Below are positions 5,113 through 47,331 of a DNA stretch of 64,000 bases, one piece after another. The number at the start of each line of letters is the position of its first letter. The first letter of the stretch is position 1. The stretch lies in IMG/VR virus record IMGVR_UViG_3300026290_000001. One strand, 5' to 3'. The translations under genes were made by a program, and so were the position numbers. This stretch comes from a virus. The notes under the pieces were generated by a model, which worked only from the letters and a program-made list of their open reading frames with translations, was not told the origin of the DNA and searched no databases.

Positions 5113-6117
5113 TTATTGATAGAAATATTGAGTATAACTTTGTTGCTTGTGTTCAAACGTTTGTTTTGCGTAAATGCCCGTAGTTTGAATATCATCATGA
5201 CCTAAAAGTTCTTGTAATACCGACATTGGACAACCGTTATTTAGCATCAAGGTTGCGAAAGTATGTCTGAGCATATGGGGATGAGTTCTCTTGTCAAGCC
5301 CTGCACGTTTACCTATTGCTGCTATTTCTCGTTGAATACCTCGATTGCTTAATCTTCTATATTCCTGCCGTTCTGTTACAAATAATGCTTCACAGTCATC
5401 CTTACGACTTTCAAGATATTTTTTAAGGTAAATTGCAGCTCTAGCAGAATAGAATACAATTCGCTCTTTGTTTCCTTTGCCTAATACCTTAATCGTCCGA
5501 TTTGATTGTCCTATATCATCTTTATTTAGTGCCGATATTTCAGATAATCGACAACCTGTTGAATACATAATTTCAGTTAATGCTTTTTCTCGCAAAGTGA
5601 AACAACTTTCACGGAATAGTTCCAATTCTTCAATTGTTAATGCCTTTGCCATTGCTTTTCCCACTTTATAAGGTTTAATTCTAATCATCGGATTTTCTTC
5701 AATAATCTGTTCCTCACAAAGCCATTCAAAGAAACTGCGAAGTACTGAGCGAATTGTCTCAACAGTACTTTTAGCATTTACTGTTGGGTCGCTTTCCCGA
5801 TCATCCAGATAGTTAATTATGTCCTGCTTGGTTATTTCATTTACTGGTTTTTCTTCGGTTCTATCGGTAAATATTTTAAGATGAAGTCGATAATTATCAA
5901 TAGTTATTGGACTTAATCCTTGCCGTTTTTTATCCTTCAAAAACAGTTTTATGTTTTTCCGCAAATTATAATATTCTGGATCGCTGTTTTGTTTTATAAC
6001 TCTGTATTCATCAAGAATGGAGGCTAATTGATTTTTAGCCTCCATCTTATTCATGCCTTTTTCTATGATTCCATCTACAATTTTAGCATATAGCTCATAA
6101 TTGAGATTAGGGTGCAT
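5113..6117 (-). CDS. tyrosine recombinase (XerC/XerD-like phage integrase family)
   Basis: N-terminal SAM-like core-binding domain (ITIDNYRLHLKIF, TIRSVLRSFFEWL). Catalytic segments TGCRLSEI, HPHMLRHTFAT and LGHDDIQTTGIYA. RBS AAAGGAGG upstream. Confidence 0.9.
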   Translation of the reverse strand: MHPNLNYELYAKIVDGIIEKGMNKMEAKNQLASILDEYRVIKQNSDPEYYNLRKNIKLFLKDKKRQGLSPITIDNYRLHLKIFTDRTEEKPVNEITKQDIINYLDDRESDPTVNAKSTVETIRSVLRSFFEWLCEEQIIEENPMIRIKPYKVGKAMAKALTIEELELFRESCFTLREKALTEIMYSTGCRLSEISALNKDDIGQSNRTIKVLGKGNKERIVFYSARAAIYLKKYLESRKDDCEALFVTERQEYRRLSNRGIQREIAAIGKRAGLDKRTHPHMLRHTFATLMLNNGCPMSVLQELLGHDDIQTTGIYAKQTFEHKQQSYTQYFYQ

Positions 6118-11687: not shown

Positions 11688-11747
11688 TAAATATCACCTC
11701 CTCATTAATTAAAAATAGGACTATATATAATTTTTATATTAATAATA

Positions 11748-12128
11748 TTAACTAATATTAATTGTAAGTGTTACGGTAAGAAGCCAGTTTCCACCGGATT
11801 TTGTGCCTAAATTTTCCACCTTCCTATTCAACATAACTCCTCCACTAGAAGCATTAAAAACTCCCCATTCCTGCCATGCAAAATTAGCATCAGTAGTTCC
11901 AAAACTAGATTTAAATACTAACTGATTATTAGTTCTTGTAGGGAAAGTGGCTTCCATGCCCTTTCTTACTTTGTTAGAACTTGCTTGTAAATCAATCTGT
12001 GAAGCTGCAAAAGCAGTAGTAGAATCACCGACTCCGATATGCGAATTTGTCGAATTAAAGAATACGGGTGAATCATCATTAATTATACAAGCTGCTATAA
12101 AATCTCTACCACTATTTGTTAATGCCAT
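11748..12128 (-). CDS. conserved phage tail-associated protein (function unknown)
   Basis: 126 aa with the pattern MALTNSGRDFIA..IGVGDSTTAF..Q.DLQA..NKVRK..ANFAWQEWGVFN..GGVMLNR, recalled from prophage fibre clusters. No named family assigned. Confidence 0.45.
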   Translation of the reverse strand: MALTNSGRDFIAACIINDDSPVFFNSTNSHIGVGDSTTAFAASQIDLQASSNKVRKGMEATFPTRTNNQLVFKSSFGTTDANFAWQEWGVFNASSGGVMLNRKVENLGTKSGGNWLLTVTLTINIS

Positions 12129-12192
12129 TTTTATAATTCCTCCTTAAATTTATATTTGTAAAATAATAAATAATTTAATAAATATTTAAATA

Positions 12193-12372
12193 TTAAATAT
12201 TAAAACCCATATCTTTTAAATTATCTTCTGATGCCATAAAATCATCTTCAGATATAATAACTTCAATGGGTTTTACCAAACCTTTATCAATTTGTTCCTG
12301 TGTTGCCCAATCAGGATATTTTTCTAATCTGAGCGTTGCTTTCATGCTAATTCCCATTTTTTCATTATTCAT
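12193..12372 (-). CDS. small hypothetical protein (59 aa)
   Basis: Not in the ORF track. ATG at 12370-12372 downstream of AAGGAGG; translates MNNEKMGISMKATLRLEKYPDWATQEQIDKGLVKPIEVIISEDDFMASEDNLKDMGFNI*. Confidence 0.4.
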   Translation of the reverse strand: MNNEKMGISMKATLRLEKYPDWATQEQIDKGLVKPIEVIISEDDFMASEDNLKDMGFNI

Positions 12373-12435
12373 AAAATCTAATAATTACCTCCTTATTTTT
12401 CTAGTATATTTATATTAATAAAATAATTAATATCT

Positions 12436-12942
12436 TTATTCTTGATAGACGAACCAAATGTCCCCATCCTCACCGTCTTCATTACTAGGTTGTACAGTAG
12501 AAAATATAAAATGGTGTGCAGAAGTTTGTATTATATCTTCAAGTGTTTCTTTAATATCATAAGAACCACTACCATTAGATTGAAAACTACTATAAATCCT
12601 ACTTGCGGGTATATAAACTCCACCACTACCATAAAAAGAAAATTGTAATATACTTCCACTTACATCAGGATGAAAATAAACGTATCCATATACATAATCT
12701 ACTTTATATGTACCAATTTTACTTTCTGTGTCTAATGTAGGAAAACCATCAACAATTTCATACCACTGGTAAGTTTCCAATCCAAAATTACCCATGACCT
12801 GAACTTTATTTTGCCTATGCGGAATTTCTGATAATATTACTAATCCATTTATTATTTTTTTATATTCACTTAATGAAACTAAAGGTTGCTCATTATTACC
12901 TCTTCGTATTGAAATAAAAGGATCATAAAAAATTTGATTCAA
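12436..12942 (-). CDS. tail/baseplate-associated protein
   Basis: TTG start after GGAGGTG. 168 aa with YKVDYVYGYVYFHPDVSG, resembling N-terminal anchor domains of fibre/baseplate proteins. Call rests mainly on position. Confidence 0.45.
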   Translation of the reverse strand: MNQIFYDPFISIRRGNNEQPLVSLSEYKKIINGLVILSEIPHRQNKVQVMGNFGLETYQWYEIVDGFPTLDTESKIGTYKVDYVYGYVYFHPDVSGSILQFSFYGSGGVYIPASRIYSSFQSNGSGSYDIKETLEDIIQTSAHHFIFSTVQPSNEDGEDGDIWFVYQE

Positions 12943-13104
12943 AATTTATCACCTCCAACCTAATTTTTCAAAAAATAGAAAAATCAAAAATGTTCAAAAA
13001 TTTATCTTCTGTTTTCTCTTGTTTTCTTCCATTTACTCTGTTTTTCAAGCACAAAATTTGAATAAAAGGAATATTTTATTGTTGAGCCAAGAACACTCGT
13101 GACT

Positions 13105-14397
13105 TCAGTCATGAGATGAATTGGCTCTGTTCTGTTCATATATAATCCATGATTTTCTTGCATTAATTCTTTGCATGTTAGATATTTTCGGTGTCTTCAT
13201 ACCTCTGGGTGCATTACTAAAATCTATTTTTTCACCATCTATACCCATAAGAATGGCATAACCCGTAGACATTCTACCTTTAATAAAATATTCATTACCT
13301 ATATACCTTACTTTATCAAACTTCCTAAATCCTTCTATTTTACCTGTAGGTATCTTCTGATGACTTCTTACTCCTTTTGCCTGTTGGTAATCGCCTTTAG
13401 GGATACACTTTTTTAATACAGCTTTTTCAGTTTTAAAGCTTACATCAATTAACCCTATATCTTCAATATTATTTAAACAGGCAATAGCTACAGCATCGTA
13501 GTAATGCTCTTTTGGTAATCCCATTAGCTGTCTATGTTCTTTGGTAATAAATCCAAAGGTTTCTTTTGCATTTGGTAGCTGTCTTAATAATTGTTGTCTT
13601 ATACTATTCATCTGTGTTGTGTGTTTTAATTGTCCTTTAATTTTACCATTCTTCTTTAATTTAATTCCTCCTTTGTGCAAACTATTATGACAAGTTTTAC
13701 AAAGTGTAATTAAATTTTCTGCATCATCTGAGCCACCATTTTTTCTAAAAACTATATGATGTACCTCTAATCTGCTGTCTTTACTTTTTCCTTTGCAATA
13801 CTGGCAAATATATTTATCTCTACTTAATACATAAGCTTTAGTATTAGCAAATCCATAATTAGTTCCTTTTTGATAAAGCCATTTATTACTTAATACTGCT
13901 GGATTTTTTAAAGCATGTGGGTCAAATGTTGCTGTTTCTATTATTATATTTGTAATGGGCATTATTGATTTTGCAAAATCAATTTCTTTTAAGTGTGAAT
14001 TAATTTTACTTGTCATTGTAGGAGAAAATCTATCTTTTTTAATGCTGTTTTTCCTATTATTAAATCTAGGTTCCCTATATCTAGTTTTCCTATTCCTTCT
14101 AGTTCTCCTATATTTAGCTCTTTTGTCCATTTTGTCAGATATATCATTTCTAATTTCTACTTCTGATATATAATACACTTCATTTTCGTCATTTGCTACT
14201 GCACTTCCTATTTTACTACTACCAGTATCAATTCCTAAAGTTAAATCTTGTGTATAGTCTGTAGCATGATATAGTAATTTAATTGTAAATGGAGTTCTTC
14301 TTATGCATTTTGCTTTACCATCTTTTAACAATAATCTTGCTATTGCTGGTTTACAAGGCATTAAAGGACTCCCATCTTCATTAATTACATAAACCAT
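13105..14397 (-). CDS. iscB: IscB RNA-guided endonuclease (PLMP-RuvC-bridge helix-HNH-RuvC)
   Basis: Domains in order: PLMP (SPLMPCKPAIARLLLKDGKA), RuvC-I (LGIDTGSSKIG), Arg-rich bridge helix (RAKYRRTRRNRKTRYREPRFNNRK) and RuvC-II (IIIETATFD). Then HNH (CQYCKG..EVHHIVFRKNGGSDDAENLITLCKTCHNSLH), RuvC-III (EHYYDAVAIA) and a C-terminal beta domain (FDKVRYIGNEYFIKGRMSTGY). Confidence 0.9.
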   Translation of the reverse strand: MVYVINEDGSPLMPCKPAIARLLLKDGKAKCIRRTPFTIKLLYHATDYTQDLTLGIDTGSSKIGSAVANDENEVYYISEVEIRNDISDKMDKRAKYRRTRRNRKTRYREPRFNNRKNSIKKDRFSPTMTSKINSHLKEIDFAKSIMPITNIIIETATFDPHALKNPAVLSNKWLYQKGTNYGFANTKAYVLSRDKYICQYCKGKSKDSRLEVHHIVFRKNGGSDDAENLITLCKTCHNSLHKGGIKLKKNGKIKGQLKHTTQMNSIRQQLLRQLPNAKETFGFITKEHRQLMGLPKEHYYDAVAIACLNNIEDIGLIDVSFKTEKAVLKKCIPKGDYQQAKGVRSHQKIPTGKIEGFRKFDKVRYIGNEYFIKGRMSTGYAILMGIDGEKIDFSNAPRGMKTPKISNMQRINARKSWIIYEQNRANSSHD

Positions 14398-14681
14398 AAA
14401 ATCAAATCCTTTCGGATAAATACTCTGCTTAAAAGCAGGTTATGCGTATCTATATACTATTACCATATATAGAATTCGTCCTCATCTCGACAATGATAAA
14501 ATAGCTTATATGTATATCACACCGAGCCTTACCCTCCAACTCTACTTAGTGATATACGATAGAGCAATGGTCTGATGCGTCAACCAAAGGTATCATAACT
14601 ATTCTATCGTAGTATAAATTTCTCTATACTAAGTCTGGTGAACTTAGACTTTAGAAGCCTCCGACTTTAGTCGGGGGTAGT
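14398..14681 (-). ncRNA. candidate IscB omega-RNA scaffold
   Basis: Non-coding and visibly GC-richer than its surroundings, directly upstream of iscB. Minus-strand helices: CCCCCGAC/GUCGGAGG, AAGUCU/AGACUU, long-range CUACGAUAGA/UCUAUCGUA, CUGCU/AGCAG, and AUCC-GAAA-GGAU just before the start codon. Confidence 0.6.
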
Positions 14682-14927
14682 TCACTCTATTTCAGGATTG
14701 ATAGATAAATCATCTTTGCTTGTACTATTTACATTAGATAAATTATCTTCATTGGACAAATCATCATTAATAATTTGACTTAATTCGTCTATTTTAGAAC
14801 TTAATTTGATAATCTCTATCTGATACATATTATTTTGTAAACATAAAGTGACTACATCTAAGGGCAAATTACTATTGTTTATTAACTCTGCCAGTTTAAT
14901 ATTAAAATCACTTATAATAAAAATCAC
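14682..14927 (-). CDS. hypothetical protein
   Basis: 81-aa acidic ORF in the minus-strand tail array. Its TGA stop (14682-14684) directly abuts the omega-RNA-like region. Confidence 0.4.
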   Translation of the reverse strand: MIFIISDFNIKLAELINNSNLPLDVVTLCLQNNMYQIEIIKLSSKIDELSQIINDDLSNEDNLSNVNSTSKDDLSINPEIE

Positions 14928-14984
14928 TTCCTTTATATTATTTTTTTATCTTATTATATTGTTATTTTTTATCTTACTATCTTG

Positions 14985-15305
14985 CTATATTGTTATCTGC
15001 GCTTTTATTTCAATCCTACAAGTGTTATTAAAAATATCTTTGTTAATATTTATTACTTTTCCATCTAATAATCTATTTATCTCATTTTCGTATTTATCAA
15101 TAAAAACCACATCGATTTTATTATCTAGATTTAATTCTAAAAAACTACAAACATCTGAACTTTTATTTGTTGGGATTTGCCCTATAAATCTGTGATAATA
15201 AATATTTTCCATTTCATGATAATAAACATCTAAAGTTCCTTGTTGAAAATCGTCTGAATAGATATGGTTGTCTAGGCAATTAAATTTTATTTTTAATTTC
15301 ATCAC
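14985..15305 (-). CDS. hypothetical protein
   Basis: 106-aa ORF in the co-directional tail array. No motif recognised. Confidence 0.4.
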   Translation of the reverse strand: MMKLKIKFNCLDNHIYSDDFQQGTLDVYYHEMENIYYHRFIGQIPTNKSSDVCSFLELNLDNKIDVVFIDKYENEINRLLDGKVININKDIFNNTCRIEIKAQITI

Positions 15306-15335
15306 CTTCTTTCAAGTTTATTTATTTTTATATTG

Positions 15336-16262
15336 TTATTGAACTCCGTTTAATTTATCTTCAAGTGTTATAAAATATGAACCATACACTATATCACCTG
15401 GAATCCTATCTGTAATCCCTGTTGAATTCATATTTCCTATTGCTGTTCTTGCAATATTAAATTTCAAAGCAGTTAATGTTTTATTGCTAGATGAAACTTT
15501 TGCATTAGTTATATGATAAGATGTTCCACCTACTGTTACATATTCAGTTAAACCTTTGTAATTCCTAAACTCTACTATTTTATCAACAAACGAATTCCAT
15601 CGATCCCATGTCAAAGTTGTTACTGCACCATGATTATTGAAAGCATTTCTTTCTGCTGTAGTCCAAGACCAATTAGTAGGACGAGATTTTGAAGTAGTTA
15701 AATAAGTATAACCAGACCAATCCGAAACCTCATAATTATAATTACGATCCCTTGCTCTACATCTAAATCCATATTGTGTATTTGGTTGTAAATTATTAAA
15801 TGTGTCTGAAGGAGAATATGGTGAAGCAGTAATTCCATTAGTGCATTGAATATCATAAACATTAGCATTAGATACATTAGAATAGTTTATAGTAATTGAA
15901 TTAGAAGATATTGATGAACTAATATAATATGGTGTAGACAATTTTGATCTTGCTGTAGTTACATATATTGTATCTATTAAATACCAAGTTCCGTTCCATT
16001 TTCCAGATACTGAAACTTTATATTCAGTATTAGGTGTTAATTTTTGATATAAAGGAGGACTAGGCATTGAATTATAAATATCGTGCCATGTATTATAAGT
16101 AGAATTGGTTGATGTCCAATTATTCCAATATACATACTCTTGTGTACTTGACTTTACAAGCACAATCTCAAATCCACCATAATCTTTTGCAGGATATGTT
16201 AATTCAGTAACATTGATTCGCATAGAATTGGAAGTTACATTATTGGCATATATTCTAGCCAT
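15336..16262 (-). CDS. tail protein with two fibronectin type III-like domains
   Basis: Two FN3 signatures (LTPNTEYKVSVSGKW..YVTT and LQPNTQYGFRCRARD..WSGYTYLTT). Confidence 0.55.
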   Translation of the reverse strand: MARIYANNVTSNSMRINVTELTYPAKDYGGFEIVLVKSSTQEYVYWNNWTSTNSTYNTWHDIYNSMPSPPLYQKLTPNTEYKVSVSGKWNGTWYLIDTIYVTTARSKLSTPYYISSSISSNSITINYSNVSNANVYDIQCTNGITASPYSPSDTFNNLQPNTQYGFRCRARDRNYNYEVSDWSGYTYLTTSKSRPTNWSWTTAERNAFNNHGAVTTLTWDRWNSFVDKIVEFRNYKGLTEYVTVGGTSYHITNAKVSSSNKTLTALKFNIARTAIGNMNSTGITDRIPGDIVYGSYFITLEDKLNGVQ

Positions 16263-16345
16263 AAAATCACCTAAATTTCTTTATAATTGAATAAATTATT
16301 TAAAAAAGAATAATAATAATTAATAAGCAAAATAGTTAAATAGTA

Positions 16346-16391: not shown

Positions 16392-16991
16392 ATGAAAGGA
16401 TGTATAATAATGAAAATTAAAAACTTATCTTATCTGTTTATTGGTTTGCTAGTTGGGTGTTTATTTCCCATTCAATCTTTATTTGCCGAACAACCTATTA
16501 CATTAATTATCAATGGTAAAACAATTACTAATGCTTCACCACAAATAGTTTCAGATAGAACGTATGTACCTTTGAGGGTAATATCCGAAGAATTAGGTGC
16601 AACAGTTGAATGGGACGGAGTAAATAGGGTAGTTAGGGTTAATAGTGGGGATGGACAAAAAATTGAAAAGATTAATCAAAATCAAACTCAAAACAATAAT
16701 GATAATAGTAATGTGGAGAGCAACCCTAGAGATAATATCAATTATATTAGTAGTGATGATATGGAAAAATATTACGAAAGAGATACAAATAAAGGTTTTG
16801 TAAAAAATCGTTGGGTAGATGGTAAATATTTTATTGACTATGATAGAAAAATTACACGTTTTGAAGATTATGAATATTATTATGATAGAGAAAGAGATAT
16901 ATTTTATTGGGCAGATTATAAGGCAATTTTAATCTTTGGAGAAACAATAAAAGATTATCCTAAATATAAATTTAACCAAATACAGCAGTAG
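16392..16991 (+). CDS. secreted lipoprotein with copper-amine-oxidase-N-terminal-like (stalk) domain; moron
   Basis: Only plus-strand gene in the tail module. Signal peptide with lipobox LLVGC (the likely start is the second ATG at 16410). Domain motif ITLIINGKTI..PQIVSDRTYVPLRVISEELGATVEWD. Has its own promoter and overlaps the convergent tail gene by 20 nt. Confidence 0.7.
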   Translation: MKGCIIMKIKNLSYLFIGLLVGCLFPIQSLFAEQPITLIINGKTITNASPQIVSDRTYVPLRVISEELGATVEWDGVNRVVRVNSGDGQKIEKINQNQTQNNNDNSNVESNPRDNINYISSDDMEKYYERDTNKGFVKNRWVDGKYFIDYDRKITRFEDYEYYYDRERDIFYWADYKAILIFGETIKDYPKYKFNQIQQ

Positions 16992-19845
16992 AAGAAATAG
17001 CATCTCCTTCAACTAAAACTCTTTTTGCTCCATACCAACTACTACCAACATAAACTTCATCACCTAATAAAACTTGATTAGCACTTATTTGTAAATGTGG
17101 ATAAGTAGAACCACCTGCTGAAATAATAACATTATGACCAGAAGTAGTGTACATTAAAATTTCTTTATTACTACTATTTTTTCCACCTATTTGCAAAGAA
17201 TTAAATGCAGTAAAATCTCCAGCAGTTATTTGATTAGCATATATTTTACCAGTAATAACATAATCTTTTCCTAATTGTGTAGTTAAGGCAGTATTAGTAA
17301 CATAGTTTGCTAAATCACCAGAATATACTAAATCTGTTGGTTTATCTATCACTTTGCCCCATGCTATATAAGCATTCGGACCCATTTGAATATTGTCACC
17401 AACAATTAACTCATTAACTTTTAGTTTATTTGCACCAACACTACCATTGGACAAATAATTACCATTGATTTTATTTAAAGAATCCAATACATTAGTACCT
17501 GCAATTTTTAAACTCGAACAATCTATATTACCTTGAATATCTGCTGATGTTGCCACTAAGTGACCTGAAAGGGAAACCCTGAAGGGTGCATAATTATAGT
17601 TACTACTACCTAAATATATTCCATTCGTGTCGGCTTTAAATATGGCATTACCCGATCCTATCTGCATATGTCCTTTTAATATTAAATTACCATCAATGTC
17701 AGCATATAATTTTTTGTTCCATTGAGAACCTTCATATTTTTCAATAGTGAATCCATCTGTTGCGTTAGATATGGAACGTACTTTATTGTCTGAACGGGTA
17801 ATTGTTAGTCCATCTGTTATATCTATTTTTACACCATTATAGAGTTTATTTTCTAAGAGTACTCCTTCTGCTAATTCTGAAACTGGTAATCCACCATCCG
17901 TTATTTGTAGGGAAAGACCTGAAATTTTTACTCCCGTTTCATTGACGGTGAAGAATTTTTTACCTTCGTTGTTTGATGCGTCTATTATGAGGTTTTGACC
18001 AATTAATAAAGTACCTAAAATTCTTTCTGCTACAATCCGATCTGGCAAAATCGCAGTATGAAATGTATTACCTCCATCTTGGGTAAGAGTAATTACACCA
18101 TGCATCATACGAATAAATTTATCAGAATCGTTCGGATCTATAATACTGATGCCTCTTCTATCAGTAATTACCGTCTCATTACCACAAGCAATTACTGCTT
18201 GTTTAGTAGCATCCCATGCATTATTTATAATTTTCTGTACTTCATTATTAGCATTTTCACCCAATGACCATTTATATTTTTCCATATCAACAGTAGTAGA
18301 TGTGCTCACTGCTTGATTTATTCTCTTTAAAAACAAATCATAATCACGATTAATATTTTCAATATTACTAATTACAAGATTGACACTATTTTCTTCAAAA
18401 TCAAAATCCATTTCAATAATTTTTGCCATAATGCTAATATCAAAAGTTTCATGGTCAATTCTAACCAAATCACCTAAAATCAATTTACCTTTATCTAATT
18501 GACAATCTTCATCTAAATATTGATCAATATTTATCGAATCTATCTCTATTAATATTTGTGGTGTATTTATTTTTACAAACTGTTCTTTACCCCAAGATAA
18601 TAATTCTTTAGCATCAAAGATGTATTGATTTTCAACAGTTTTTACAACTATATAATCAGTAAGTTCAAATAATTCAGATTGAGTAAAATTACTTTCCATA
18701 CGCAATGTGTCACCAAGAGAAATTATATTAGATTGTACAGAATTTATTTGTGATTGTTTATTACTAATTTCAGTGTTTTTATTATTTATTTCATTTTGTT
18801 TGGCAGATTGTTGTGCTAATAAATCATAAGCACTTTGACCCTTAGATTGTGCCAAATCTATATTGTCTTGAATTATTATTAATTCAGATTGTAGTGTAAT
18901 TAATTGACTATTTAAAATTATTAGTTCTGCTTCATATGTTTCTAATTGAGATAAATAACCTTGATATATACCATCATTATCTTGTAATTTTTTATTATAA
19001 GCCAATAAAGCATGACATAATTCATTGGACATATAATGACTACTTTGAATTACATTGCCTTGCTCATCTTCTGTATATGGATAAAGAAAATATCCAAAGT
19101 TATCTAAATAGTCAGTACCAGTTATATTGTATTCATTTATACTTAATCCCGATTTGCCATAAATTTTTAAACGAGTGCAAAAATCTGAATCATCCAAAGA
19201 TTGATTTAGTGATTTCAAATAGATACCATAATTAAAATTTAAACCAGTGTAGTTTCCGATTTGGTCTAATTTATAAAAACTTATCTTTTTATTTTCAGTA
19301 TCCCATTTAATAATTGCACTAAATGTTTCTGAAACTGTAAATATTGCATCTAGTACCGTAGCAGAAGTAATTTCTAACATGCGAAATTTAGTGTCGAACT
19401 CTGAATTCACGTACCCCAAAGACCATGTAGTTTCCTTTAACAAATCGGTCATTATTTGTGATAATGTTTTGGATTCAACTTTATATCCTCTAATTAAATT
19501 ATCTTTTAATTTAAAGGGGAGAGAAAAACATTCCACTTGAAACGAATCTATATCTTCACCCATATTTTGAATTGGTTTTTGTATAATAAACCATTCAATT
19601 TTATTATTATATTCAAATTTTATTAGGTATTTATAACGAATCATATTAAGATGTTTGTTATAAACTAATTCGTTCTCTATTTCAATATATAAAGGAAGAT
19701 CAAACGATAATTCTGAAATATTACCAAGTTTACAGTTATATTGTATATTAAATGCCTGATTAGATAAATCTGCAATAATATTTCTATCAGGTTTTGTAAG
19801 ATATAGTTTTGGTTTTTGTAGTAAGTCTATTATAAATATCACCAC
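16972..19845 (-). CDS. tail-associated minor structural protein (prophage tail endopeptidase / Tal-like)
   Basis: 957 aa immediately after Dit. The N-terminal region is of the phage minor-structural-protein type, followed by a central coiled coil (LETYEAELIILNSQLITLQSELIIIQDNI) and a C-terminal beta-rich domain. Confidence 0.7.
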   Translation of the reverse strand: MVIFIIDLLQKPKLYLTKPDRNIIADLSNQAFNIQYNCKLGNISELSFDLPLYIEIENELVYNKHLNMIRYKYLIKFEYNNKIEWFIIQKPIQNMGEDIDSFQVECFSLPFKLKDNLIRGYKVESKTLSQIMTDLLKETTWSLGYVNSEFDTKFRMLEITSATVLDAIFTVSETFSAIIKWDTENKKISFYKLDQIGNYTGLNFNYGIYLKSLNQSLDDSDFCTRLKIYGKSGLSINEYNITGTDYLDNFGYFLYPYTEDEQGNVIQSSHYMSNELCHALLAYNKKLQDNDGIYQGYLSQLETYEAELIILNSQLITLQSELIIIQDNIDLAQSKGQSAYDLLAQQSAKQNEINNKNTEISNKQSQINSVQSNIISLGDTLRMESNFTQSELFELTDYIVVKTVENQYIFDAKELLSWGKEQFVKINTPQILIEIDSINIDQYLDEDCQLDKGKLILGDLVRIDHETFDISIMAKIIEMDFDFEENSVNLVISNIENINRDYDLFLKRINQAVSTSTTVDMEKYKWSLGENANNEVQKIINNAWDATKQAVIACGNETVITDRRGISIIDPNDSDKFIRMMHGVITLTQDGGNTFHTAILPDRIVAERILGTLLIGQNLIIDASNNEGKKFFTVNETGVKISGLSLQITDGGLPVSELAEGVLLENKLYNGVKIDITDGLTITRSDNKVRSISNATDGFTIEKYEGSQWNKKLYADIDGNLILKGHMQIGSGNAIFKADTNGIYLGSSNYNYAPFRVSLSGHLVATSADIQGNIDCSSLKIAGTNVLDSLNKINGNYLSNGSVGANKLKVNELIVGDNIQMGPNAYIAWGKVIDKPTDLVYSGDLANYVTNTALTTQLGKDYVITGKIYANQITAGDFTAFNSLQIGGKNSSNKEILMYTTSGHNVIISAGGSTYPHLQISANQVLLGDEVYVGSSWYGAKRVLVEGDAISSTAVFG

Positions 19846-19864: not shown

Positions 19865-20638
19865 CTAATAAAATCTGAATTCATATTTCATGTCCAAAAA
19901 ACACTTGCCATCAACCTTTAGTCTATTTTTACCATAAGGCAAACTCATATAATAATTATTTATAAGTTTGTCATATCTATAAATAGGTGGAGGTGTGCTT
20001 TCTAACGAACTTTCTATATTTCTTCTCTTACAATCGATTTGTACAATTTCATTATCTTCTAATTCTGAAAATCCAAATTCTTTACCGTTAGATAAATTTA
20101 AAATAGATACTTTACCTTTTTCTAGTTTTTTAATTGTTATTATAGGTAAAACATCCACATCTCCTAAATTATTAAATACAAAATGATTAGTACTTTCTTT
20201 GCTAAAATCATAAGATTCTAAATAGATATGCGAATGTGCATAAGAACTCTTACATCTAAATTGACAAGTTATATAACCTTGATTTATACCATTATGAGAT
20301 ATTTGTGGATCAGAAATTAAAATACAATAATAAATTTTATCAGGATTTTCCGAAAAACGCATTTTAGCATAATATGGTTTTCTTAACCATCGTTTAACCC
20401 TTTGTAAAGATTCTTCCGTCCATCCCTTTTTAAAAGCAAAAACTAAATCCAGTATTAAAGGTTTTGGTTTAACTTCTTGAAAATAAGGTTCATTTCTACC
20501 ACGTATTTCAGTTTCAATTATTTCTACTTCTGCTACAAAAGGTTCTTCTGTCATTCCAGAAGAAAGATTACAATTTATAATATCGTAATCATATGAATAT
20601 TCATTATCAAATTCAAAATACGCAGAATCTTTTATCAT
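19865..20638 (-). CDS. distal tail protein (Dit-like)
   Basis: 257 aa directly downstream of the tape measure and upstream of the Tal-like gene, the canonical siphovirus order TMP-Dit-Tal. Confidence 0.65.
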   Translation of the reverse strand: MIKDSAYFEFDNEYSYDYDIINCNLSSGMTEEPFVAEVEIIETEIRGRNEPYFQEVKPKPLILDLVFAFKKGWTEESLQRVKRWLRKPYYAKMRFSENPDKIYYCILISDPQISHNGINQGYITCQFRCKSSYAHSHIYLESYDFSKESTNHFVFNNLGDVDVLPIITIKKLEKGKVSILNLSNGKEFGFSELEDNEIVQIDCKRRNIESSLESTPPPIYRYDKLINNYYMSLPYGKNRLKVDGKCFLDMKYEFRFY

Positions 20639-20652
20639 TGCTGTTCACCACC

Positions 20653-20688
20653 TTAAAACAAAACAGAAGGGGAGTAGATACCCCTTCT
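20653..20688 (-). terminator. intrinsic terminator between tape measure and Dit
   Basis: Minus strand reads TAGAAGGGGTATCTACTCCCCTTCTGTTTTGTTTT: an 8-bp GC-rich stem overlapping the TMP stop codon, followed by a U-run. Confidence 0.7.
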
Positions 20689-23600
20689 ATTTACCAAGTT
20701 TACTCATTCCATTATTTATCCGTTTAAAGAAACCATCAACACCTTTTTCTGTGTTTTCTACTTTATCTATATGAACATTCATATTATAAGTTACGTTACC
20801 TCCACCAGCAAACTGTAATTGTGGAGTTGCATTGGCAATTAATTTTTGCATATTAGGAATTAGATATCTTTCAATATTTTTTGGTGGAATTAAAATTTCA
20901 TTTGTTAGTGCTTTGATTATATGTTCATTGGCACTGGTATTGAAAAATTTATTAAATTTATCAACAAAACCAAATGATTTATCTCCGACTATACCACCTT
21001 CATGATATATCCTAATTTGTCTTTTCTTTTCATCCCATTCTACTTGATGACCTAATGCTTCTGCAACTTCCCTGATAGAAAGATATGTTGTTCCGTCAAC
21101 ATTTTTAGCTGGTTTAAATCTCTTTCCACCAATTATAATTGTCTGGTTTTGTCCATAACCTTCCCAATCAGCAGATGCTCCTAAAAGTGATGCAAGAAGT
21201 CTAGATTGCATAATTGCTCTATTATTGACAAGTTCAAAAGAACCAGAATCCAATACTGCCATAGGTTGTCTACCAGATGTGTTAGAACTAGGATTAGTAC
21301 TTTCCAAAGAGGGAATAGACATATTCGCACTATTTGCACTTTCTAATAATGCTAATGCCTGTTCCATTTTTGTAATTAAATTAGCACTAATACTATTACC
21401 AATAAACTCTAAATTGCCATTTACAAAAGTTTTAAATTCTGCAAAAGCTGATTTAACTTTATCAATATTACCATTTATAATATCAGAACGAATTTGGGCA
21501 AACTTTTGTTCGTCATTAATTAAATCGTCATAGTGTTTTTCGGTTTCTCTTTTAATTCTATCCAACCTATCTTTTTCTAAGTTAAGTTTAGTATCTTCTG
21601 CTTTTTTCTTTGCATCAATATCTTTTTTATAAGCATCTAATTGGTCTTTAAGATTTTCTTTACGTAAATCAATTGAATGGTCATGTTGATATTCATTAAT
21701 TTCATCCTCTTGTTCTGCCAATTGTTTTATTAATTCTGCTTTTTTTGCTTTTGCTTCAAAAGAATCATCTAATGATAAAACGTCAATATTTTTTTGAGTT
21801 TCTAATATTGCTTTTTGTTTCTTTTCCAATTCACGATTATAATCATGCTCATTTTCTTCTCTATCTAGTGCTTTGATTCGTGCATTGATGTAATCTTCAA
21901 ATTGTTTTAATTCATCATCAAGATTATCAGTTGCTTGTTTATGACGTTTTTCTTCTGCTTTCATTTGTTCATCTATGGCATCTAATGCAACTTGTTTTTG
22001 TTTTTCATAGATATTTTTATAGATAGAGATGATTTCGTCTGCTATGGATGCTAGTTGTTGTTTGATAGAGAATTGGAGATTGATATATTCTTGCTTTAGT
22101 TGTTTTAAAGTATTTATCAATTCTTGTTTTTGGTCAGCATTGTATCTATCACTTGCTAATTCCTGTTGAACTAATGCTATTTTATTTCTTAAAATATTAA
22201 CACTTTCAATATTAATTTGATTTTCTCGTTCTAATAATGCAATATATTCAGCAGACCCTTTTTCTAATAAAGACATTTCATTTCTAAGGTTTTCTTTTTC
22301 TTGAGTTAAATCAGATAGTTTAATATCTTCAATTGATAAATTAATTTTAAATTCAGCAAAACTCAAATCTCTTATTTCATCATCTATACCTTGAATTTCT
22401 TTTTTAAGACCTTCTGCACTATCTTTGAGTTTTTTAAAATCTTCAATCGCTTTTGCAATTTTTTCATTCTTTATATCAACTTCAATTGTATCTGTTGAAC
22501 CAGACATTATTTTGTTAAAGTCAGATTCAGACAACCCTTTTCCAATATAAGACCGTAGATTCTGTTCTGCTTGTTTTAGACTTGAATCAAAAGTGTTATT
22601 TATATCTAAAAGCAGGTTTTGTTTTTTTTGTAATAAAAGTATCATTTGGTCATATATTTCTGTTTTTTGTTCAAAAGAAGTTACATCGTCAAGTTGATCT
22701 TTAAAAGTTTCTATTTCTCTGTTAATTGCTTCGAGTGCTTCTTTCCAAACTTCAAAGGTTTTGGTAAAGGATTTGGAGGATTTAGAGGAAGAACCATATC
22801 TATCTAAAGAACTAGATACATTAAGATTTTTAAACTTAGATGCCATATCTCTAGTGGCTTTTTGAAATTCAGCATAATCTTTAAGCATCTGGTTTGTTTT
22901 AGAATCAACAGCTAAAGCACTACCGCTTTCAATACGTCTAAAATCACCCATACTCGAAGGATTTACTAATAGCGTACCTGCATTAAAAGCATCAAAATAT
23001 TTCGCCCATTCAGAACCTAATTTGCTTATTAATTGCAATTCAATTGCTTCTCTTGCTTGAGCTAAATTTGCCCATTGAGTTACATTATTGCCATATAATT
23101 TTGATAAATGATTAAATAATTCAGCATGGTTATTTTTAACACTGTTATAGAAATTAATATCTTGTTCTTTAGTTTTTATAAAGGCATCATAAATTGCATT
23201 TTGGTAATCTTCTGTGTCTTTGACAAGTTGTTGTCTTAATTTGGACTCATCTTCAAGTAGAGGAATATAATCTTGATAATCAGATATTATTTTTTCTATT
23301 GAAGATTGAGTAAGACCTTTGTCAGATAATTCATCAAGAAAACCTTTTAGGTCTTTTATTTTAGATACATTGTCTTTGTAAGTGGTTTGAAAATCGGAGA
23401 GAGCTTTTTCATATTGATTTAAAGTATTAATCGCATTTTTTGAATCAATAGTAGAAGGATATAGTGATGCAAAATTAATAGCAAATTCTTTTAAATCGGG
23501 ATTACCTTTAGTTAATGTATTAATTAAATTAGTTATTTCCTTAGATGTTTTTGATAATCCATCTCTATTTTTCTTAGAATCATCGCCACTATTAATAGCA

Positions 23601-26600
23601 GAAGTTAATTTATTATATTGTTCAATTAAAGAATCTAAATCAGAATTAGCAACTTTAGTAGCAAAATCACTTAATGCTTGTTGTTGAGTTTCTATATCTT
23701 CGGGTTGTAAAGCAAGTGATTTAGCAAATTCGGAAACAACTAATTTGGCAGAATCAGACATTTCCTTACCATTAGATTCTAAAGTTTTAATGGTTTCTTG
23801 CGCTTCGTATTCTAAATATTTTTGTTTGTTTTTAGAAAGATTATATATTTCTTCTTGTTGTCTTTGATATATATCTTTCCAATCTTCTAATTTTCTGAGG
23901 TTATACCATTCAGTTCCTTTATTATTATCAATCATTAATTGATATTCTTCTATACGTTTTTCTGCGGTGTCTCTGAGGTTAATTGCTTTTTTAATTTCTT
24001 TATTAGTTTGTTTATCTGATGCTTTAACTTTAAATTCTAATAATTCCTGTTCTTTTTTTAATTCTTCATCTAAAGCCAAAATTCTTAGTTTAATTACTTC
24101 TATAGAATCAGAATAAGCTTCTCCTTCAAGATTAATACCAGTAGCAGATACACCATATTTATCAACAAGTTCTTTTTGAATTTCTAATAATCGTTTCTTT
24201 TCTTCGGTAGTTGCGGTAAGATTTTTCTCTTTATCTTTAAGAGTTTCATATTCAGAAGTTAATTCTTTTAACCCCTCTTTTTGTTGTTTTAAATTTTGTA
24301 TTTGATTTTGACTTGTTTCTATTTGTTTTTGTTGTTCTTCTCTATGTTTTTTAGTAGCATTAGTGAGTCCATAAATAGCAACCATTGCAGTTGTTGCAAC
24401 AACTGCCAATAATCCTAATGGATTTGTTGCCATCGTTGCTTTTAAAAAATTCATTGCAGCAGTAAGTCCTTGTGTTGTTGTCAATAATGCTAAAAGGGAA
24501 ATATTGGCAGCATTAGTAGTAGTAATGAATGCGATCATTGCTTTTATACTAGAAGTAATAGCAGTTCCTTTCCAAATTAAAAAAGCCGTAGTTAAAAGTG
24601 CTACAACAACTTCTGCATTTCCAAGAACTTCAACTAAAGTTGTCATAGCAATTACAAAACCTTTAATTACGTCAGAATTTAATGCTTCTTGCCATTTCCC
24701 CATTACTGTGTTTTTGAATTGTGCAGATTTTGCCTCAATTGATTCCATATACTTTTCGTTTTCAATTAAAGCAGAATTTGTCGAATTTAAGGCAGTAGTT
24801 AGAGAGTCCTGCATATCCTTGTAATTAGTCATCATAGCCATTACTATGTTTCCTTGTCTTTTTCCTGCGACAAGTTCCGACATATTAGCCCTCTGTACGT
24901 CTGTAAGTTTTTCCCAAACTAAGGCTAATTCTAACATAATGTCATAGGTGGATTTAAAGGTATTTTCATCTTTGCGAATTTGAATACCAATATTTTTAAA
25001 TGATTCTTCAAGTTTAGGAAGATATTCTAAAACATCTTCACCATCTTCGGATACACCTCTAAGTCTCATTGAAATTGTTTTGAGGGCTGTTCCTACGGTT
25101 GCTGGGTCTTGTACCACTGCGTTAGCAGCAGTTATCAATGCAACTGCTTCTTCCATTGTATTGCCAGCAGAATATAATGAAGCAGCAGATCTACGCATAG
25201 CTTCACCAATACCTGCACTTGAAATTGCAAAATTATTTCCAACTTCATTATAAATATCTACAATTTTCTGTATATTTCTACCTTCTTCATCTACTGCAAC
25301 ACCAAAACCTTTTACTGCTGAAATAATTGCTAGACTAGCTTCTTCTACTCCAATATCACCTACATTAGAATATAATAATGCTTGTTTTGCTAATTGAGCA
25401 GATTGTTCAAGGGAATAACCCAAACGGGCAAACTCTGTCGTACTATTAATAACTTCCACACTAGTTTTTGCCAAATTTCGACCTATAGCATTTGCCTCAA
25501 GTGAAAATTTATTTAATGTTTCTCTAGTTTCGTCAGTAACTTTATTCAAATTTGTGAGAGCAGTATCTATGTCGATGATACTTTGAATACCATTTTTTAC
25601 TGCTGTTATTGTTTTGATTATTACATCACCGATGAGCAACCAACTAGCGAATTTCTTGCCCGCTTCAAGTAAACTTTGTCCAAAAAGTCCAGTATATTTA
25701 TTAGCATCTTGAATTTCTTTCTTATAAATACTTGTGGTAGTAGAAATTTCTCTAAGTTTAGAATTGGCTTCTGCCATATTCTTACTGAAATTTTTATTAG
25801 TTGGATCAAAACCACGTATTTGAGATTCAAGAGTATTTAAAGCACTTAAATTATCACCAACAATAAACTTTCCATCTACACCTCTCATGCCCCTGATTCT
25901 ATTTAATAAATCTTGTTGAGCAAGAGATTGTTTATGTATTTCACTTGTTAACTTTTGCTGTTGAATAATATCTTTATCAATATTTTTTGCTTTTATTGTA
26001 CCAACATTCCGTAATGTTTGTTCTCTAATTTTTTCAAGTTGAATTAATTTTTCAGCTTCTATTCCTTCTATTTTGGTTTTTTCACCAATGTCAATTTTTC
26101 TTCTAATAATATTATTATATTGACCTTGATGATAGGTTATTTGTTTAGTTAATTCTTTTGCCTGTTCTGTATCTTTATTTCCTAAACTATGATAATCTTG
26201 TCTTAATTTATTTAATTGTGTTAAATGCTGTTTGGCTTCATTAAAATTTTTATTTTGTGTATTTTTAATAGTTTCTAAATTAGTTTTTTCAAGATTATCA
26301 TAATAATCTGCCATTTTAACCAGTTCATCTGGTTTCTTTGTCATATCACCTACAGTTTCTTTAACTCTCTGTGACCAATATTTGGACTGTTCTTTATTTA
26401 ATTTTTCTAACTCTGTACGTTGTTTTTTATAATTAATAGTAGTTTCTGTTACTTTTTTATATACTTCGTCTGTTCCTGCTTTTAAATGTTCAATTTGTTT
26501 TACACTCTCACCATTTGCTTTTGTCCACTCTTTAGTTCTTTCAGTAATTTTTGCTTCAGCATTTTCAATTTGTACATATTTTTCTTTATACTTGTCTAAA

Positions 26601-26731
26601 CCCTTACTATCAACATCAATTTTTATTTTAGGATTAACTCGTTGTTCAATATCTTTTTTTACTTTATTTAGTTCTGATTCTGATGCTCTATCTAATAACG
26701 TTTTTATTCGGATTACAATATCATCTGCCAC
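20687..26731 (-). CDS. tail tape measure protein (2014 aa)
   Basis: Long coiled coils and a TP901-type core (NEVGNNFAISSAGIGEAMRRSAASLYSAG). Central hydrophobic helices. The C-terminus carries a copper-amine-oxidase-N-like motif (IIIGGKRFKPAKNVDGTTYLSIREVAEALGHQVEWD). Confidence 0.95.
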   Translation of the reverse strand: MADDIVIRIKTLLDRASESELNKVKKDIEQRVNPKIKIDVDSKGLDKYKEKYVQIENAEAKITERTKEWTKANGESVKQIEHLKAGTDEVYKKVTETTINYKKQRTELEKLNKEQSKYWSQRVKETVGDMTKKPDELVKMADYYDNLEKTNLETIKNTQNKNFNEAKQHLTQLNKLRQDYHSLGNKDTEQAKELTKQITYHQGQYNNIIRRKIDIGEKTKIEGIEAEKLIQLEKIREQTLRNVGTIKAKNIDKDIIQQQKLTSEIHKQSLAQQDLLNRIRGMRGVDGKFIVGDNLSALNTLESQIRGFDPTNKNFSKNMAEANSKLREISTTTSIYKKEIQDANKYTGLFGQSLLEAGKKFASWLLIGDVIIKTITAVKNGIQSIIDIDTALTNLNKVTDETRETLNKFSLEANAIGRNLAKTSVEVINSTTEFARLGYSLEQSAQLAKQALLYSNVGDIGVEEASLAIISAVKGFGVAVDEEGRNIQKIVDIYNEVGNNFAISSAGIGEAMRRSAASLYSAGNTMEEAVALITAANAVVQDPATVGTALKTISMRLRGVSEDGEDVLEYLPKLEESFKNIGIQIRKDENTFKSTYDIMLELALVWEKLTDVQRANMSELVAGKRQGNIVMAMMTNYKDMQDSLTTALNSTNSALIENEKYMESIEAKSAQFKNTVMGKWQEALNSDVIKGFVIAMTTLVEVLGNAEVVVALLTTAFLIWKGTAITSSIKAMIAFITTTNAANISLLALLTTTQGLTAAMNFLKATMATNPLGLLAVVATTAMVAIYGLTNATKKHREEQQKQIETSQNQIQNLKQQKEGLKELTSEYETLKDKEKNLTATTEEKKRLLEIQKELVDKYGVSATGINLEGEAYSDSIEVIKLRILALDEELKKEQELLEFKVKASDKQTNKEIKKAINLRDTAEKRIEEYQLMIDNNKGTEWYNLRKLEDWKDIYQRQQEEIYNLSKNKQKYLEYEAQETIKTLESNGKEMSDSAKLVVSEFAKSLALQPEDIETQQQALSDFATKVANSDLDSLIEQYNKLTSAINSGDDSKKNRDGLSKTSKEITNLINTLTKGNPDLKEFAINFASLYPSTIDSKNAINTLNQYEKALSDFQTTYKDNVSKIKDLKGFLDELSDKGLTQSSIEKIISDYQDYIPLLEDESKLRQQLVKDTEDYQNAIYDAFIKTKEQDINFYNSVKNNHAELFNHLSKLYGNNVTQWANLAQAREAIELQLISKLGSEWAKYFDAFNAGTLLVNPSSMGDFRRIESGSALAVDSKTNQMLKDYAEFQKATRDMASKFKNLNVSSSLDRYGSSSKSSKSFTKTFEVWKEALEAINREIETFKDQLDDVTSFEQKTEIYDQMILLLQKKQNLLLDINNTFDSSLKQAEQNLRSYIGKGLSESDFNKIMSGSTDTIEVDIKNEKIAKAIEDFKKLKDSAEGLKKEIQGIDDEIRDLSFAEFKINLSIEDIKLSDLTQEKENLRNEMSLLEKGSAEYIALLERENQINIESVNILRNKIALVQQELASDRYNADQKQELINTLKQLKQEYINLQFSIKQQLASIADEIISIYKNIYEKQKQVALDAIDEQMKAEEKRHKQATDNLDDELKQFEDYINARIKALDREENEHDYNRELEKKQKAILETQKNIDVLSLDDSFEAKAKKAELIKQLAEQEDEINEYQHDHSIDLRKENLKDQLDAYKKDIDAKKKAEDTKLNLEKDRLDRIKRETEKHYDDLINDEQKFAQIRSDIINGNIDKVKSAFAEFKTFVNGNLEFIGNSISANLITKMEQALALLESANSANMSIPSLESTNPSSNTSGRQPMAVLDSGSFELVNNRAIMQSRLLASLLGASADWEGYGQNQTIIIGGKRFKPAKNVDGTTYLSIREVAEALGHQVEWDEKKRQIRIYHEGGIVGDKSFGFVDKFNKFFNTSANEHIIKALTNEILIPPKNIERYLIPNMQKLIANATPQLQFAGGGNVTYNMNVHIDKVENTEKGVDGFFKRINNGMSKLGK

Positions 26732-27163: not shown

Positions 27164-28201
27164 TTACAAATCACTTAAAGATTTATTTTCTACTTGTTTA
27201 ATCCCATCTTCATCAAAATACTTACCTAATTCCTCATCTATCTCAGTGTCATTATATAATGACACCATATTCGTACTCTCCCAGCCAACTACATCTTTAA
27301 TTACATCTGCTGGAATATTTGCTTGGCAAAGTGCGGTTGTAAAATAATGTCTATTTGAATGCCAATACCAATCTATACCTAAAATATTAGAAAAAGTTAT
27401 TGCCCAAGAATTTAATAAAGATATAGTGCCTGGTTTCCATACACTATTTCTTTTATTCCAAAATAACTCTTCCCCTTCAATGCCTAATTCTTCACGTTGC
27501 TTCATCCATAAATCAAAATAAGGTTTAAATTTAGAAACCAAGATATACCTATAAATCATTTTACCCTTAGAACTTCTACCCTTTGTTTTTATCTTTTCAG
27601 GAGTTTTATATAAAGCACCGTATTTAATATTTTCTTCTGTAAAATGACTTACTTTAAACCTTAATAATTCTGCCTTTCTTGATCCACTACTTACTGCCAA
27701 TGCAACTGCACATGCTTGTTGATATTTGCCTTTTTCAACTAAATAATTAAGCAATTCGTCAACTTGTTCATCTGCAAGGACAGTTTTATCCCTAACATTT
27801 ACTTTTACTGGTGCAGGGATTTTATTAACTATATTGCGAAAATTAGGGTGAATGTCATCTAGCATTGCCTCTATATAATTAGACATACTACTAATTGCTG
27901 ACTTCAATCTTCTTACTCTATTAGGACTAAGATTTTGTGTATTCACAAGCCAATTCTGATATTTTAAAATATCACGTTTAGTAAAATCTATAAAAAATTT
28001 ATTATCATTATATTGTAAATTCCATACCCAACAAATTTCAATATCATTTTCATAACCTTTTATAGTGGCATGAGACATATCTTTCCCTCTGCAATAATCT
28101 AAAAATTCATTAAGTAAATCTTTATTTTCTTTTGAAACTCGTTTCCACAATTCAGGAGTTACAATTGTATGTTGTTCGGTTTTCCTTGCGATTATAATCA
28201 C
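27164..28201 (-). CDS. tyrosine recombinase embedded in the tail module
   Basis: Catalytic segments SSGSRKAELL, WHSNRHYFTT and GWESTNMVSLY, plus a core-binding-like N-terminus (ATIKGYENDIEICWVW). The start is non-canonical: the GTG lies inside the SD-like AAGGAAGTG, and ATC occupies the position where the sibling leader has ATG. Confidence 0.8.
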   Translation of the reverse strand: MIIIARKTEQHTIVTPELWKRVSKENKDLLNEFLDYCRGKDMSHATIKGYENDIEICWVWNLQYNDNKFFIDFTKRDILKYQNWLVNTQNLSPNRVRRLKSAISSMSNYIEAMLDDIHPNFRNIVNKIPAPVKVNVRDKTVLADEQVDELLNYLVEKGKYQQACAVALAVSSGSRKAELLRFKVSHFTEENIKYGALYKTPEKIKTKGRSSKGKMIYRYILVSKFKPYFDLWMKQREELGIEGEELFWNKRNSVWKPGTISLLNSWAITFSNILGIDWYWHSNRHYFTTALCQANIPADVIKDVVGWESTNMVSLYNDTEIDEELGKYFDEDGIKQVENKSLSDL

Positions 28202-47255: not shown

Positions 47256-47331
47256 TGGAGCCGAGTATAGGATTTGAACCCATAATCTGTTGTTTACAAG
47301 ACAACTGCCTTATCAATTTGGCTAACCCGGC
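47256..47331 (-). tRNA. tRNA-Thr (anticodon UGU), CCA encoded
   Basis: Minus strand folds by hand as GCCGGGT-TA-GCCA..AGGC-A-GTTGT-CTTGTAA-ACAAC-AGATT-ATGGG-TTCAAAT-CCTAT-ACTCGGC-TCCA. It has a 7-bp acceptor stem, a TTCAAAT T-loop and an anticodon loop with U33 followed by UGU. Confidence 0.85.

Follow-up and report, generated by a model that had tools for sequence, protein, structure and literature searches.

We analyzed a 64,000-nt stretch of viral DNA (IMG/VR record IMGVR_UViG_3300026290_000001; hereafter, the window), which carries an iscB gene and a structured region upstream of it, in the tail module of a phage contig of roughly 100 kb. The window is essentially the same as a second IMG/VR record, IMGVR_UViG_3300009671_000358 (a single mismatch over 9,290 bp), and a megablast of positions 11700-16300 against the INPHARED phages gave no match. 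The genes and features of the locus are listed below, with positions counted from the first letter of the window.

12436..12942, minus strand: downstream 168-aa gene, matching phrog_11315; its homologues in contigs L034-L041 carry a precomputed PF27067 YomF_N annotation
13075..13079, plus strand: predicted TAM, TTTAT, immediately 5' of the left end of the element (ATAAA after the element in 5/5 insertions)
13080..14685: whole non-autonomous IS200/IS605-type (ISC) element, 1,606 bp (empty-site alignment, BLAST breakpoints)
13084..13127, plus strand: left-end subterminal imperfect hairpin, overlapping the last iscB codons (DNA fold -11.5 kcal/mol, z = -3.47)
13105..14397, minus strand: iscB, 430 aa, apparently intact (Pfam, phmmer, dN/dS)
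14398..14474, minus strand: predicted omega-RNA 3' extension past the Rfam model (two hairpins, then the iscB ribosome-binding region)
14475..14685, minus strand: predicted omega-RNA scaffold core (HEARO, RF02033; cmscan match and covariation in 27 homologues)
14638..14685, plus strand: right-end subterminal hairpin (DNA fold -10.8 kcal/mol, z = -3.11)
14682..14927, minus strand: 81-aa tail-module ORF hosting the insertion (homologues of 77-82 aa in the same gene order without IscB)
14686..14701, minus strand: predicted 16-nt guide, 5'-UCAAUCCUGAAAUAGA-3', just outside the element, covering the last five codons plus two bases of the 81-aa ORF
16972-19845, minus strand: Tal-like protein
19865-20638, minus strand: Dit
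20687-26731, minus strand: tape measure

The element runs in the direction of the late genes around it, in line with the reported tendency of IscB elements to point the same way as the gene upstream, an arrangement that lets read-through transcription capture the guide (Meers et al., bioRxiv 10.1101/2023.03.14.532601). The distance from the 81-aa ORF to the 168-aa gene is about 131 bp in related contigs that lack the element versus 1,739 bp in the window. An earlier reading of the letters alone (hereafter, the sequence-only reading) had called the 81-aa ORF a tail gene. That label is right as to its place in the tail module, but the ORF has no family match, so the label is positional only. Elsewhere in the window, two tyrosine-recombinase (Phage_integrase) ORFs occur at 27164-28201 and 5113-6117 (both minus strand), one of them directly upstream of the tape-measure gene in the structural region, an unusual location for an integrase. 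On the opposite strand within the minus-strand tail module, a 199-aa ORF (16392-16991, plus strand) resembles a moron-type insertion; its N-terminus is hydrophobic, and it has a Cu_amine_oxidN1 domain (1.4e-14). A tRNA-Thr gene (anticodon TGT) is found at 47256-47331 (minus strand).

Pfam searches of the 430-aa ORF found RRXRR (PF14239, 2.2e-54) and HNH (PF01844, 3.6e-14) domains, and phmmer aligned the protein to the OgeuIscB structures 7utn and 7xht (E about 1e-42) with the motifs in register: the PLMP N-terminus, GIDTG (D57), IIIETATF (E154), VHHIV (H213/H214), and HYYDA (H298/D301). We take D57, E154, and H298/D301 to make up the split RuvC site and H213/H214 to belong to the HNH site. The predicted protein appears to have the domain layout of an IscB, with a PLMP/RRXRR N-terminus, a split RuvC domain with an inserted HNH domain, and the catalytic residues in place. 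Comparison with four phage-borne relatives gave dN/dS values of 0.10-0.23, indicating that IscB is under purifying selection. The window holds no second IscB copy.

A gap of exactly 284 bp (14398-14681) separates the start codon of iscB (14397) from the stop codon of the ORF upstream (14684-14682). As the sequence-only reading had noticed, it contains no real ORF (only three trivial ones of 20-29 aa) and is richer in GC than its flanks, with values of 0.36-0.385 over 14400-14699 compared to 0.19-0.30 in the flanks and 0.287 in the whole window. The RNA running from 14701 to 14398 (minus strand, 304 nt) has a predicted folding energy of -83.4 kcal/mol versus -65.7 +/- 5.3 kcal/mol for dinucleotide shuffles (z = -3.34), with 0 of 100 shuffles folding as well. 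An Rfam scan of the whole window at the gathering threshold yielded two matches, HEARO (RF02033) and one tRNA. The HEARO match, at 14685..14475 (minus strand), spans model positions 1-211 of 211 without truncation and scores 121.7 bits (cmscan, E = 1.2e-24) against a gathering score of 83; from the end of this scaffold to the ATG of iscB, on the same strand, is 77 nt. The sequence-only reading had proposed that the region upstream of iscB is its omega-RNA and had named a covariance model as a check, and the end-to-end match directly upstream of an intact iscB bears the proposal out. Experiments have identified HEARO as the guide RNA of IscB (Meers et al. 2023, bioRxiv 10.1101/2023.03.14.532601; 2026 review). 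We propose, with a probability of about 0.88, that the structured stretch 14701..14398 (minus strand) encodes the HEARO/omega-RNA of a small phage-borne IscB element.

Compensatory substitutions in homologous loci, which had been named as a further check, are present among 27 distinct phage-borne homologues that were aligned with MAFFT and not fitted to structure. The structure scored was the HEARO fold mapped from the cmscan alignment of the window together with three 3' hairpins. Overall, 80.4% of cells were paired, a figure somewhat favored by this mapping, versus 32-43% when the partners were slid by 1-3 columns. Changes on both sides were seen in 52 of 83 pairs, and 0 of 500 shuffles reached the observed covariation. 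The predicted HEARO consensus structure and two extra 3' hairpins are thus strongly backed by covariation. All five complementary segments that the sequence-only reading had listed are present, but comparative support exists for only two. One is CCCCCGAC/GUCGGAGG, which corresponds to HEARO helix 2 (80% of cells paired, 3/6 pairs covarying), and the other is the hairpin CUGCU-UUUA-AGCAG at 14438..14425 (minus strand; 88% paired, 4/5 pairs covarying). The second 3' hairpin, at 14473..14449 (minus strand) with the loop UGGUAAUAG (UGGUAAYAG), keeps a stem of 5-8 bp and differing sequence in 26 of the 27 homologues.

Two of the remaining pairings were rejected, as covariation was absent and shuffles did as well: AAGUCU/AGACUU (33% paired) and the long-range helix CUACGAUAGA/UCUAUCGUA (68.5% paired, 0/10 pairs covarying). 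The latter competes with the strongly covarying helix GAUAGAAUAG/CUAUUUUAUC (8/11 pairs), which the minimum-energy fold also chose over it. The last, AUCC-GAAA-GGAU just before the AUG, overlaps the iscB ribosome-binding site and proved poorly conserved, being paired in only 44% of cells. The 7-nt core of the long-range helix, ACGAUAG/CUAUCGU (about 14608..14602 with 14560..14554, minus strand), is near-invariant in the 27 sequences and is uninformative on pairing for that reason; it overlaps the covarying helix and could represent an alternative conformer or a tertiary contact. The CUGCU-UUUA-AGCAG hairpin was flagged as terminator-like, and the sequence 3' of it, GAGUAUUUAU, is conserved across the clade; this hairpin could mark the omega-RNA 3' end or act as an attenuator of read-through into iscB.

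The two covarying 3' hairpins beyond the Rfam model agree with the remark of Meers et al. (bioRxiv 10.1101/2023.03.14.532601) that RF02033 lacks downstream structural elements. They also set the present clade apart from OgeuIscB-omega-RNA (PDB 7UTN, 7XHT), to which they are additional, and the present protein is shorter (430 aa versus about 496 aa). The two systems are alike in having the scaffold upstream of iscB on the same strand and the guide 5' at the transposon boundary. The TAM of OgeuIscB is given as NWRRNA, a pattern that ATAAAA at the present locus would fit on paper.

The limits of the element were established from related phage contigs in which the site is empty. The empty site reads ...TCAATCCTGAAATAGA^ATAAAATATT..., also written ...GAAATAGA^ATAAAATATT..., where the caret marks the junction, and the two alleles compare as follows.

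Empty allele: ...TCTATCAATCCTGAAATAGA^ATAAAATATTCC...
Window allele: ...CCTGAAATAGA^GTGAAC...(element)...GGCTCAACA^ATAAAATATTCC...

The occupied allele is longer than the empty one by exactly 1,606 bp. BLAST alignments with contigs L041, L037, L038, and L034, whose flanks are 85-98% identical, break at 14686 and 13080; because of a shared A the position is ambiguous by 1 nt, such that 13081-14686 fits the element limits equally well. The insertion is precise and has neither a target-site duplication nor terminal inverted repeats, as in elements of the IS200/IS605 type (ISC). Similarity among IscB loci begins abruptly at GTGAAC (14685), with unrelated sequences upstream, which indicates that the guide derives from flanking phage DNA. 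Together with the empty-site breakpoint at 14686, this agrees with the earlier expectation of an omega-RNA guide at the transposon-end boundary.

Both ends of the element have subterminal hairpins. The left-end hairpin is conserved in L155, L002, L004, and L042, and the right-end hairpin corresponds in DNA to the stems that open the omega-RNA, with the transposon-encoded motif TTCAC (14681-14685) at its tip. In five of five independent insertions (the window, L155, L042, L002, and L004) ATAAA follows the element end and the sequences diverge beyond it, pointing to a TAM of TTTAT, or ATAAA directly 3' of the target in the omega-RNA sense. A first estimate from L002 and L004 had placed the left-end boundary after ...ATAAAA; the empty site and the five junctions showed it to be wrong, the shared ATAAA being the TAM outside the element. 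The motif TTCAC and the TAM TTTAT differ at positions 3 and 5, which is the pattern described for Geobacillus stearothermophilus elements, where IscB uses TTCAT (Meers et al., bioRxiv 10.1101/2023.03.14.532601). The element resembles ISGst5/GstIscB of that species (Meers et al. 2023) in further respects: it is of the IS200/IS605 type, its omega-RNA is bounded by the right end, it has a pentanucleotide TAM 5' of the left end, and it follows the orientation of the upstream gene. It differs in its TAM, TTTAT (as in ISGst2/TnpB2), and in being carried by a phage genome instead of a bacterial chromosome.

A tblastn search of the 64-kb window found no tnpA encoding a Y1 (HUH) TnpA, making the element non-autonomous, and its present mobility would depend on a transposase supplied in trans. 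Two relatives, L007 and L005, have tnpA after iscB. Because tnpA is absent from most IscB elements, which count as non-autonomous members (2026 review), the lack of TnpA does not bar membership of the IS200/IS605 type. As far as the sequence can tell, all testable defining features of HEARO/omega-RNA and of ISC elements are present except a tnpA within the element.

The guide was predicted at 14701..14686 (minus strand), with the scaffold starting at 14685 and a length of 16 nt borrowed from known IscB systems. The sequence-only reading had put it near 14680-14705, over the stop-codon region of the 81-aa ORF. It was right about the overlap with phage DNA but not about the exact interval or the stop codon: the present stop (14684-14682) sits in the first scaffold bases, inside the element, and the native TAA is part of the TAM. 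Its suggestion that the natural target is the uninterrupted junction held up well, as related phages carry that junction. In six contigs (L037-L041 and L167) the guide matches the empty allele at 16 of 16 positions and is followed by ATAAA, and in the occupied junction GTGAA stands in place of the TAM. Diverged alleles also retain ATAAA: L034 (337-357) has two guide mismatches, at TAM-proximal positions 1 and 4, and L035/L036 (268-288) have five. The substitutions in these alleles may simply be background divergence, or they may let the phages evade IscB. Five mismatches are also present in L030-33. When viral and metagenome collections were scanned for both kinds of junction, the occupied one turned up in this contig only, and one further empty allele, L167, was added. 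The window itself contains only a 3-mismatch site as a second guide target, at chance frequency. Unrelated viral and metagenome contigs (L161/L162/L165, L163, L164/L166, and L168) contain perfect 21-nt matches to the guide joined to the TAM or to GTGAA; these are chance sites and would count as potential off-targets.

The insertion lies inside the last codon of the 81-aa gene, where the native CCT GAA ATA GA^A TAA has become CCT GAA ATA GA^G TGA in the window. The first four bases of the element, GTGA, rebuild the Glu codon and the stop, which leaves the 81-aa protein as it was; its ending, ...PEIE, is shared by P0001 and P0002, the products of empty alleles. The native TAA stop lies within the TAM in the empty allele. 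We considered whether the element had cut short a longer gene, as two frames continue without a stop for 24-34 codons beyond the junction, and used a reconstructed 115-aa query. This was rejected: the homologues are 77-82 aa long and the empty alleles end ...GAA TAA at that point.

We infer RNA expression, cleavage, and homing at this locus by analogy with known systems. The element inserted next to TTTAT, two bases into the last sense codon of the 81-aa gene, and in this scheme read-through transcription from the phage operon would yield the guide and scaffold. IscB would bind the omega-RNA and cut DNA carrying 5'-TCAATCCTGAAATAGA-ATAAA-3', that is, the empty site, either after excision or in a co-infecting relative without the element, and recombinational repair from an occupied copy would then restore or spread the element. 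The occupied site should be immune because its TAM is replaced by GTGAA. GstIscB, with the TAM TTCAT, cleaves donor joints and drives homing (Meers et al., bioRxiv 10.1101/2023.03.14.532601), and the cleavage of empty donor joints to restore the element, the role proposed for it, is the role we envisage here. The arrangement also recalls phage homing endonucleases (T4 Seg/Mob, and intron endonucleases in co-infection competition), in which a nuclease gene is wedged between conserved phage genes, its product recognizes the site where that is left uninterrupted in related phages, and both forms of the site are found in nature. Unlike in those systems, the target here would be read by an RNA guide and a 5-nt TAM instead of by a protein, and the element has transposon ends and, with TnpA, could move to unrelated sites.

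The element could instead be an inert passenger, neutral and recently inserted, with an IscB and an omega-RNA that are neither expressed nor active, and it would have been kept only because the 81-aa gene is undamaged. Several observations would fit this. The insertion left the host protein as it was, and tnpA is absent from the window. A scan for an omega-RNA promoter found promoter-like sites at chance level (26 versus 25.1 expected), so that the source of transcription in our scheme is assumed. The occupied allele was seen in one contig versus six empty alleles with a perfect target, and there is thus no sign of efficient drive. The purifying selection on iscB across phage-borne copies (dN/dS 0.10-0.23), together with an intact ORF that has kept its catalytic motifs, argues against inertness, as do the retention of every covarying helix in the omega-RNA and an operon-matching orientation typical of retained IscB elements. 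On balance we consider the passenger explanation unlikely.

Much less probable is a purely cis-acting leader, a 5' UTR without guide function that would control how well the HNH-nuclease mRNA is translated or how stable it is, as HEARO was originally viewed before 2021. The RNA does lie immediately upstream of the ORF, with the terminator-like hairpin at 14438..14425 and a possible ribosome-binding-site hairpin beside the start codon, but the latter is the poorly conserved one (44% paired), the RNA has its 5' edge right at the transposon end, and the 16 nt next to it, together with the TAM, exactly match the empty site; the experimental demonstration of HEARO as the IscB guide RNA weighs against it as well. 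A secondary regulatory role of the omega-RNA beside its guide function is possible. A self-splicing intron or IStron with a homing HNH endonuclease, in which the structured RNA would be a ribozyme and the spliced junction would read GAAATAGA-ATAAAATA, would account for a precise, scarless insertion in a phage structural operon and for the HNH-containing ORF, but is scarcely credible given that only HEARO and a tRNA, and no intron family, reach the Rfam threshold in the window, that the protein is a RuvC+HNH IscB and not a stand-alone HNH protein, that the element brings its own stop codon and so does not need splicing, and that it has IS200/IS605-type hairpins at both ends along with TAM and transposon-encoded motifs.

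Returning to the guide-RNA reading, we raise tentatively, as a somewhat doubtful extension of it, that the element may serve both as an RNA-guided homing drive and as an interference weapon between co-infecting phages, cutting relatives with the empty allele (TCAATCCTGAAATAGA-ATAAA). If so, such relatives would either acquire the occupied allele together with tail-module markers flanking it or be destroyed, and the alleles with TAM-proximal mismatches (L034, with two; L035/36, with five) would be escape variants. 'Transposon non-restorative homing' into co-infecting phages is a category in a 2026 review, and the literature searched yielded no demonstration of homing of IscB elements between co-infecting phages.

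Related elements occur in other contigs. HEARO was found upstream of IscB in five related viral loci, and a scan of 20 loci in Bacillota and other genomes gave 16 further HEARO matches, 15 of them upstream of an IscB match. A single 17-nt HEARO core motif was present in 51 IMG/VR contigs, with about 40 true HEARO RNAs, many of them in contigs 50-200 kb long; phages therefore seem to carry IscB elements commonly, and these usually go unannotated. HEARO RNAs have been listed in Staphylococcus Silviavirus (PMC13346280), likewise phages infecting Bacillota, but there only as Rfam annotations, with no boundaries, guide, target, or empty allele.

Several of the related loci depart from the full arrangement. 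In L121, L112, L146, and L148 there is possibly no iscB start after the RNA. L155 (975-1314; IMGVR_UViG_3300027711_000254) holds a miniature derivative of about 340 bp, in which a near-identical omega-RNA is joined directly to the left-end hairpin, iscB having been deleted between GTTTATGT and GAACAGAAC. It occupies a different site, with the guide AAAACAAATTGAATAT and the TAM ATAAA, and looks like a stand-alone omega-RNA, or PATE-like element, that needs IscB in trans. Four loci, L118, L127, L139, and L160 (IMG/VR sample 3300045988 and others), share a common flank and a normal omega-RNA 5' half; past a TTTAA motif, about 170 nt into the HEARO match, they pass into unrelated sequence and lack both iscB and the 3' half of the scaffold. 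These are disrupted or recombined omega-RNAs. L042, a 1,005-bp contig of a Tetragenococcus sp. MAG (JBFLGC010000103.1), contains the 3' portion of an iscB with 89% identity, together with the left end and TAM seen here; it may give a hint of host range or be a binned phage fragment.

The families to which the RNA and the protein belong, like the transposon architecture and the homing model, were established already, and the locus adds an instance and not a principle. The way the terminal GTGA rebuilds the interrupted codon and stop means that such an element can sit in an essential structural operon at no cost. With an occupied allele, six perfect empty alleles, diverged alleles, and a miniature derivative elsewhere, one phage lineage provides an unusually complete natural example, and the locus is a ready test system for homing of, or competition through, OMEGA nucleases between phages.
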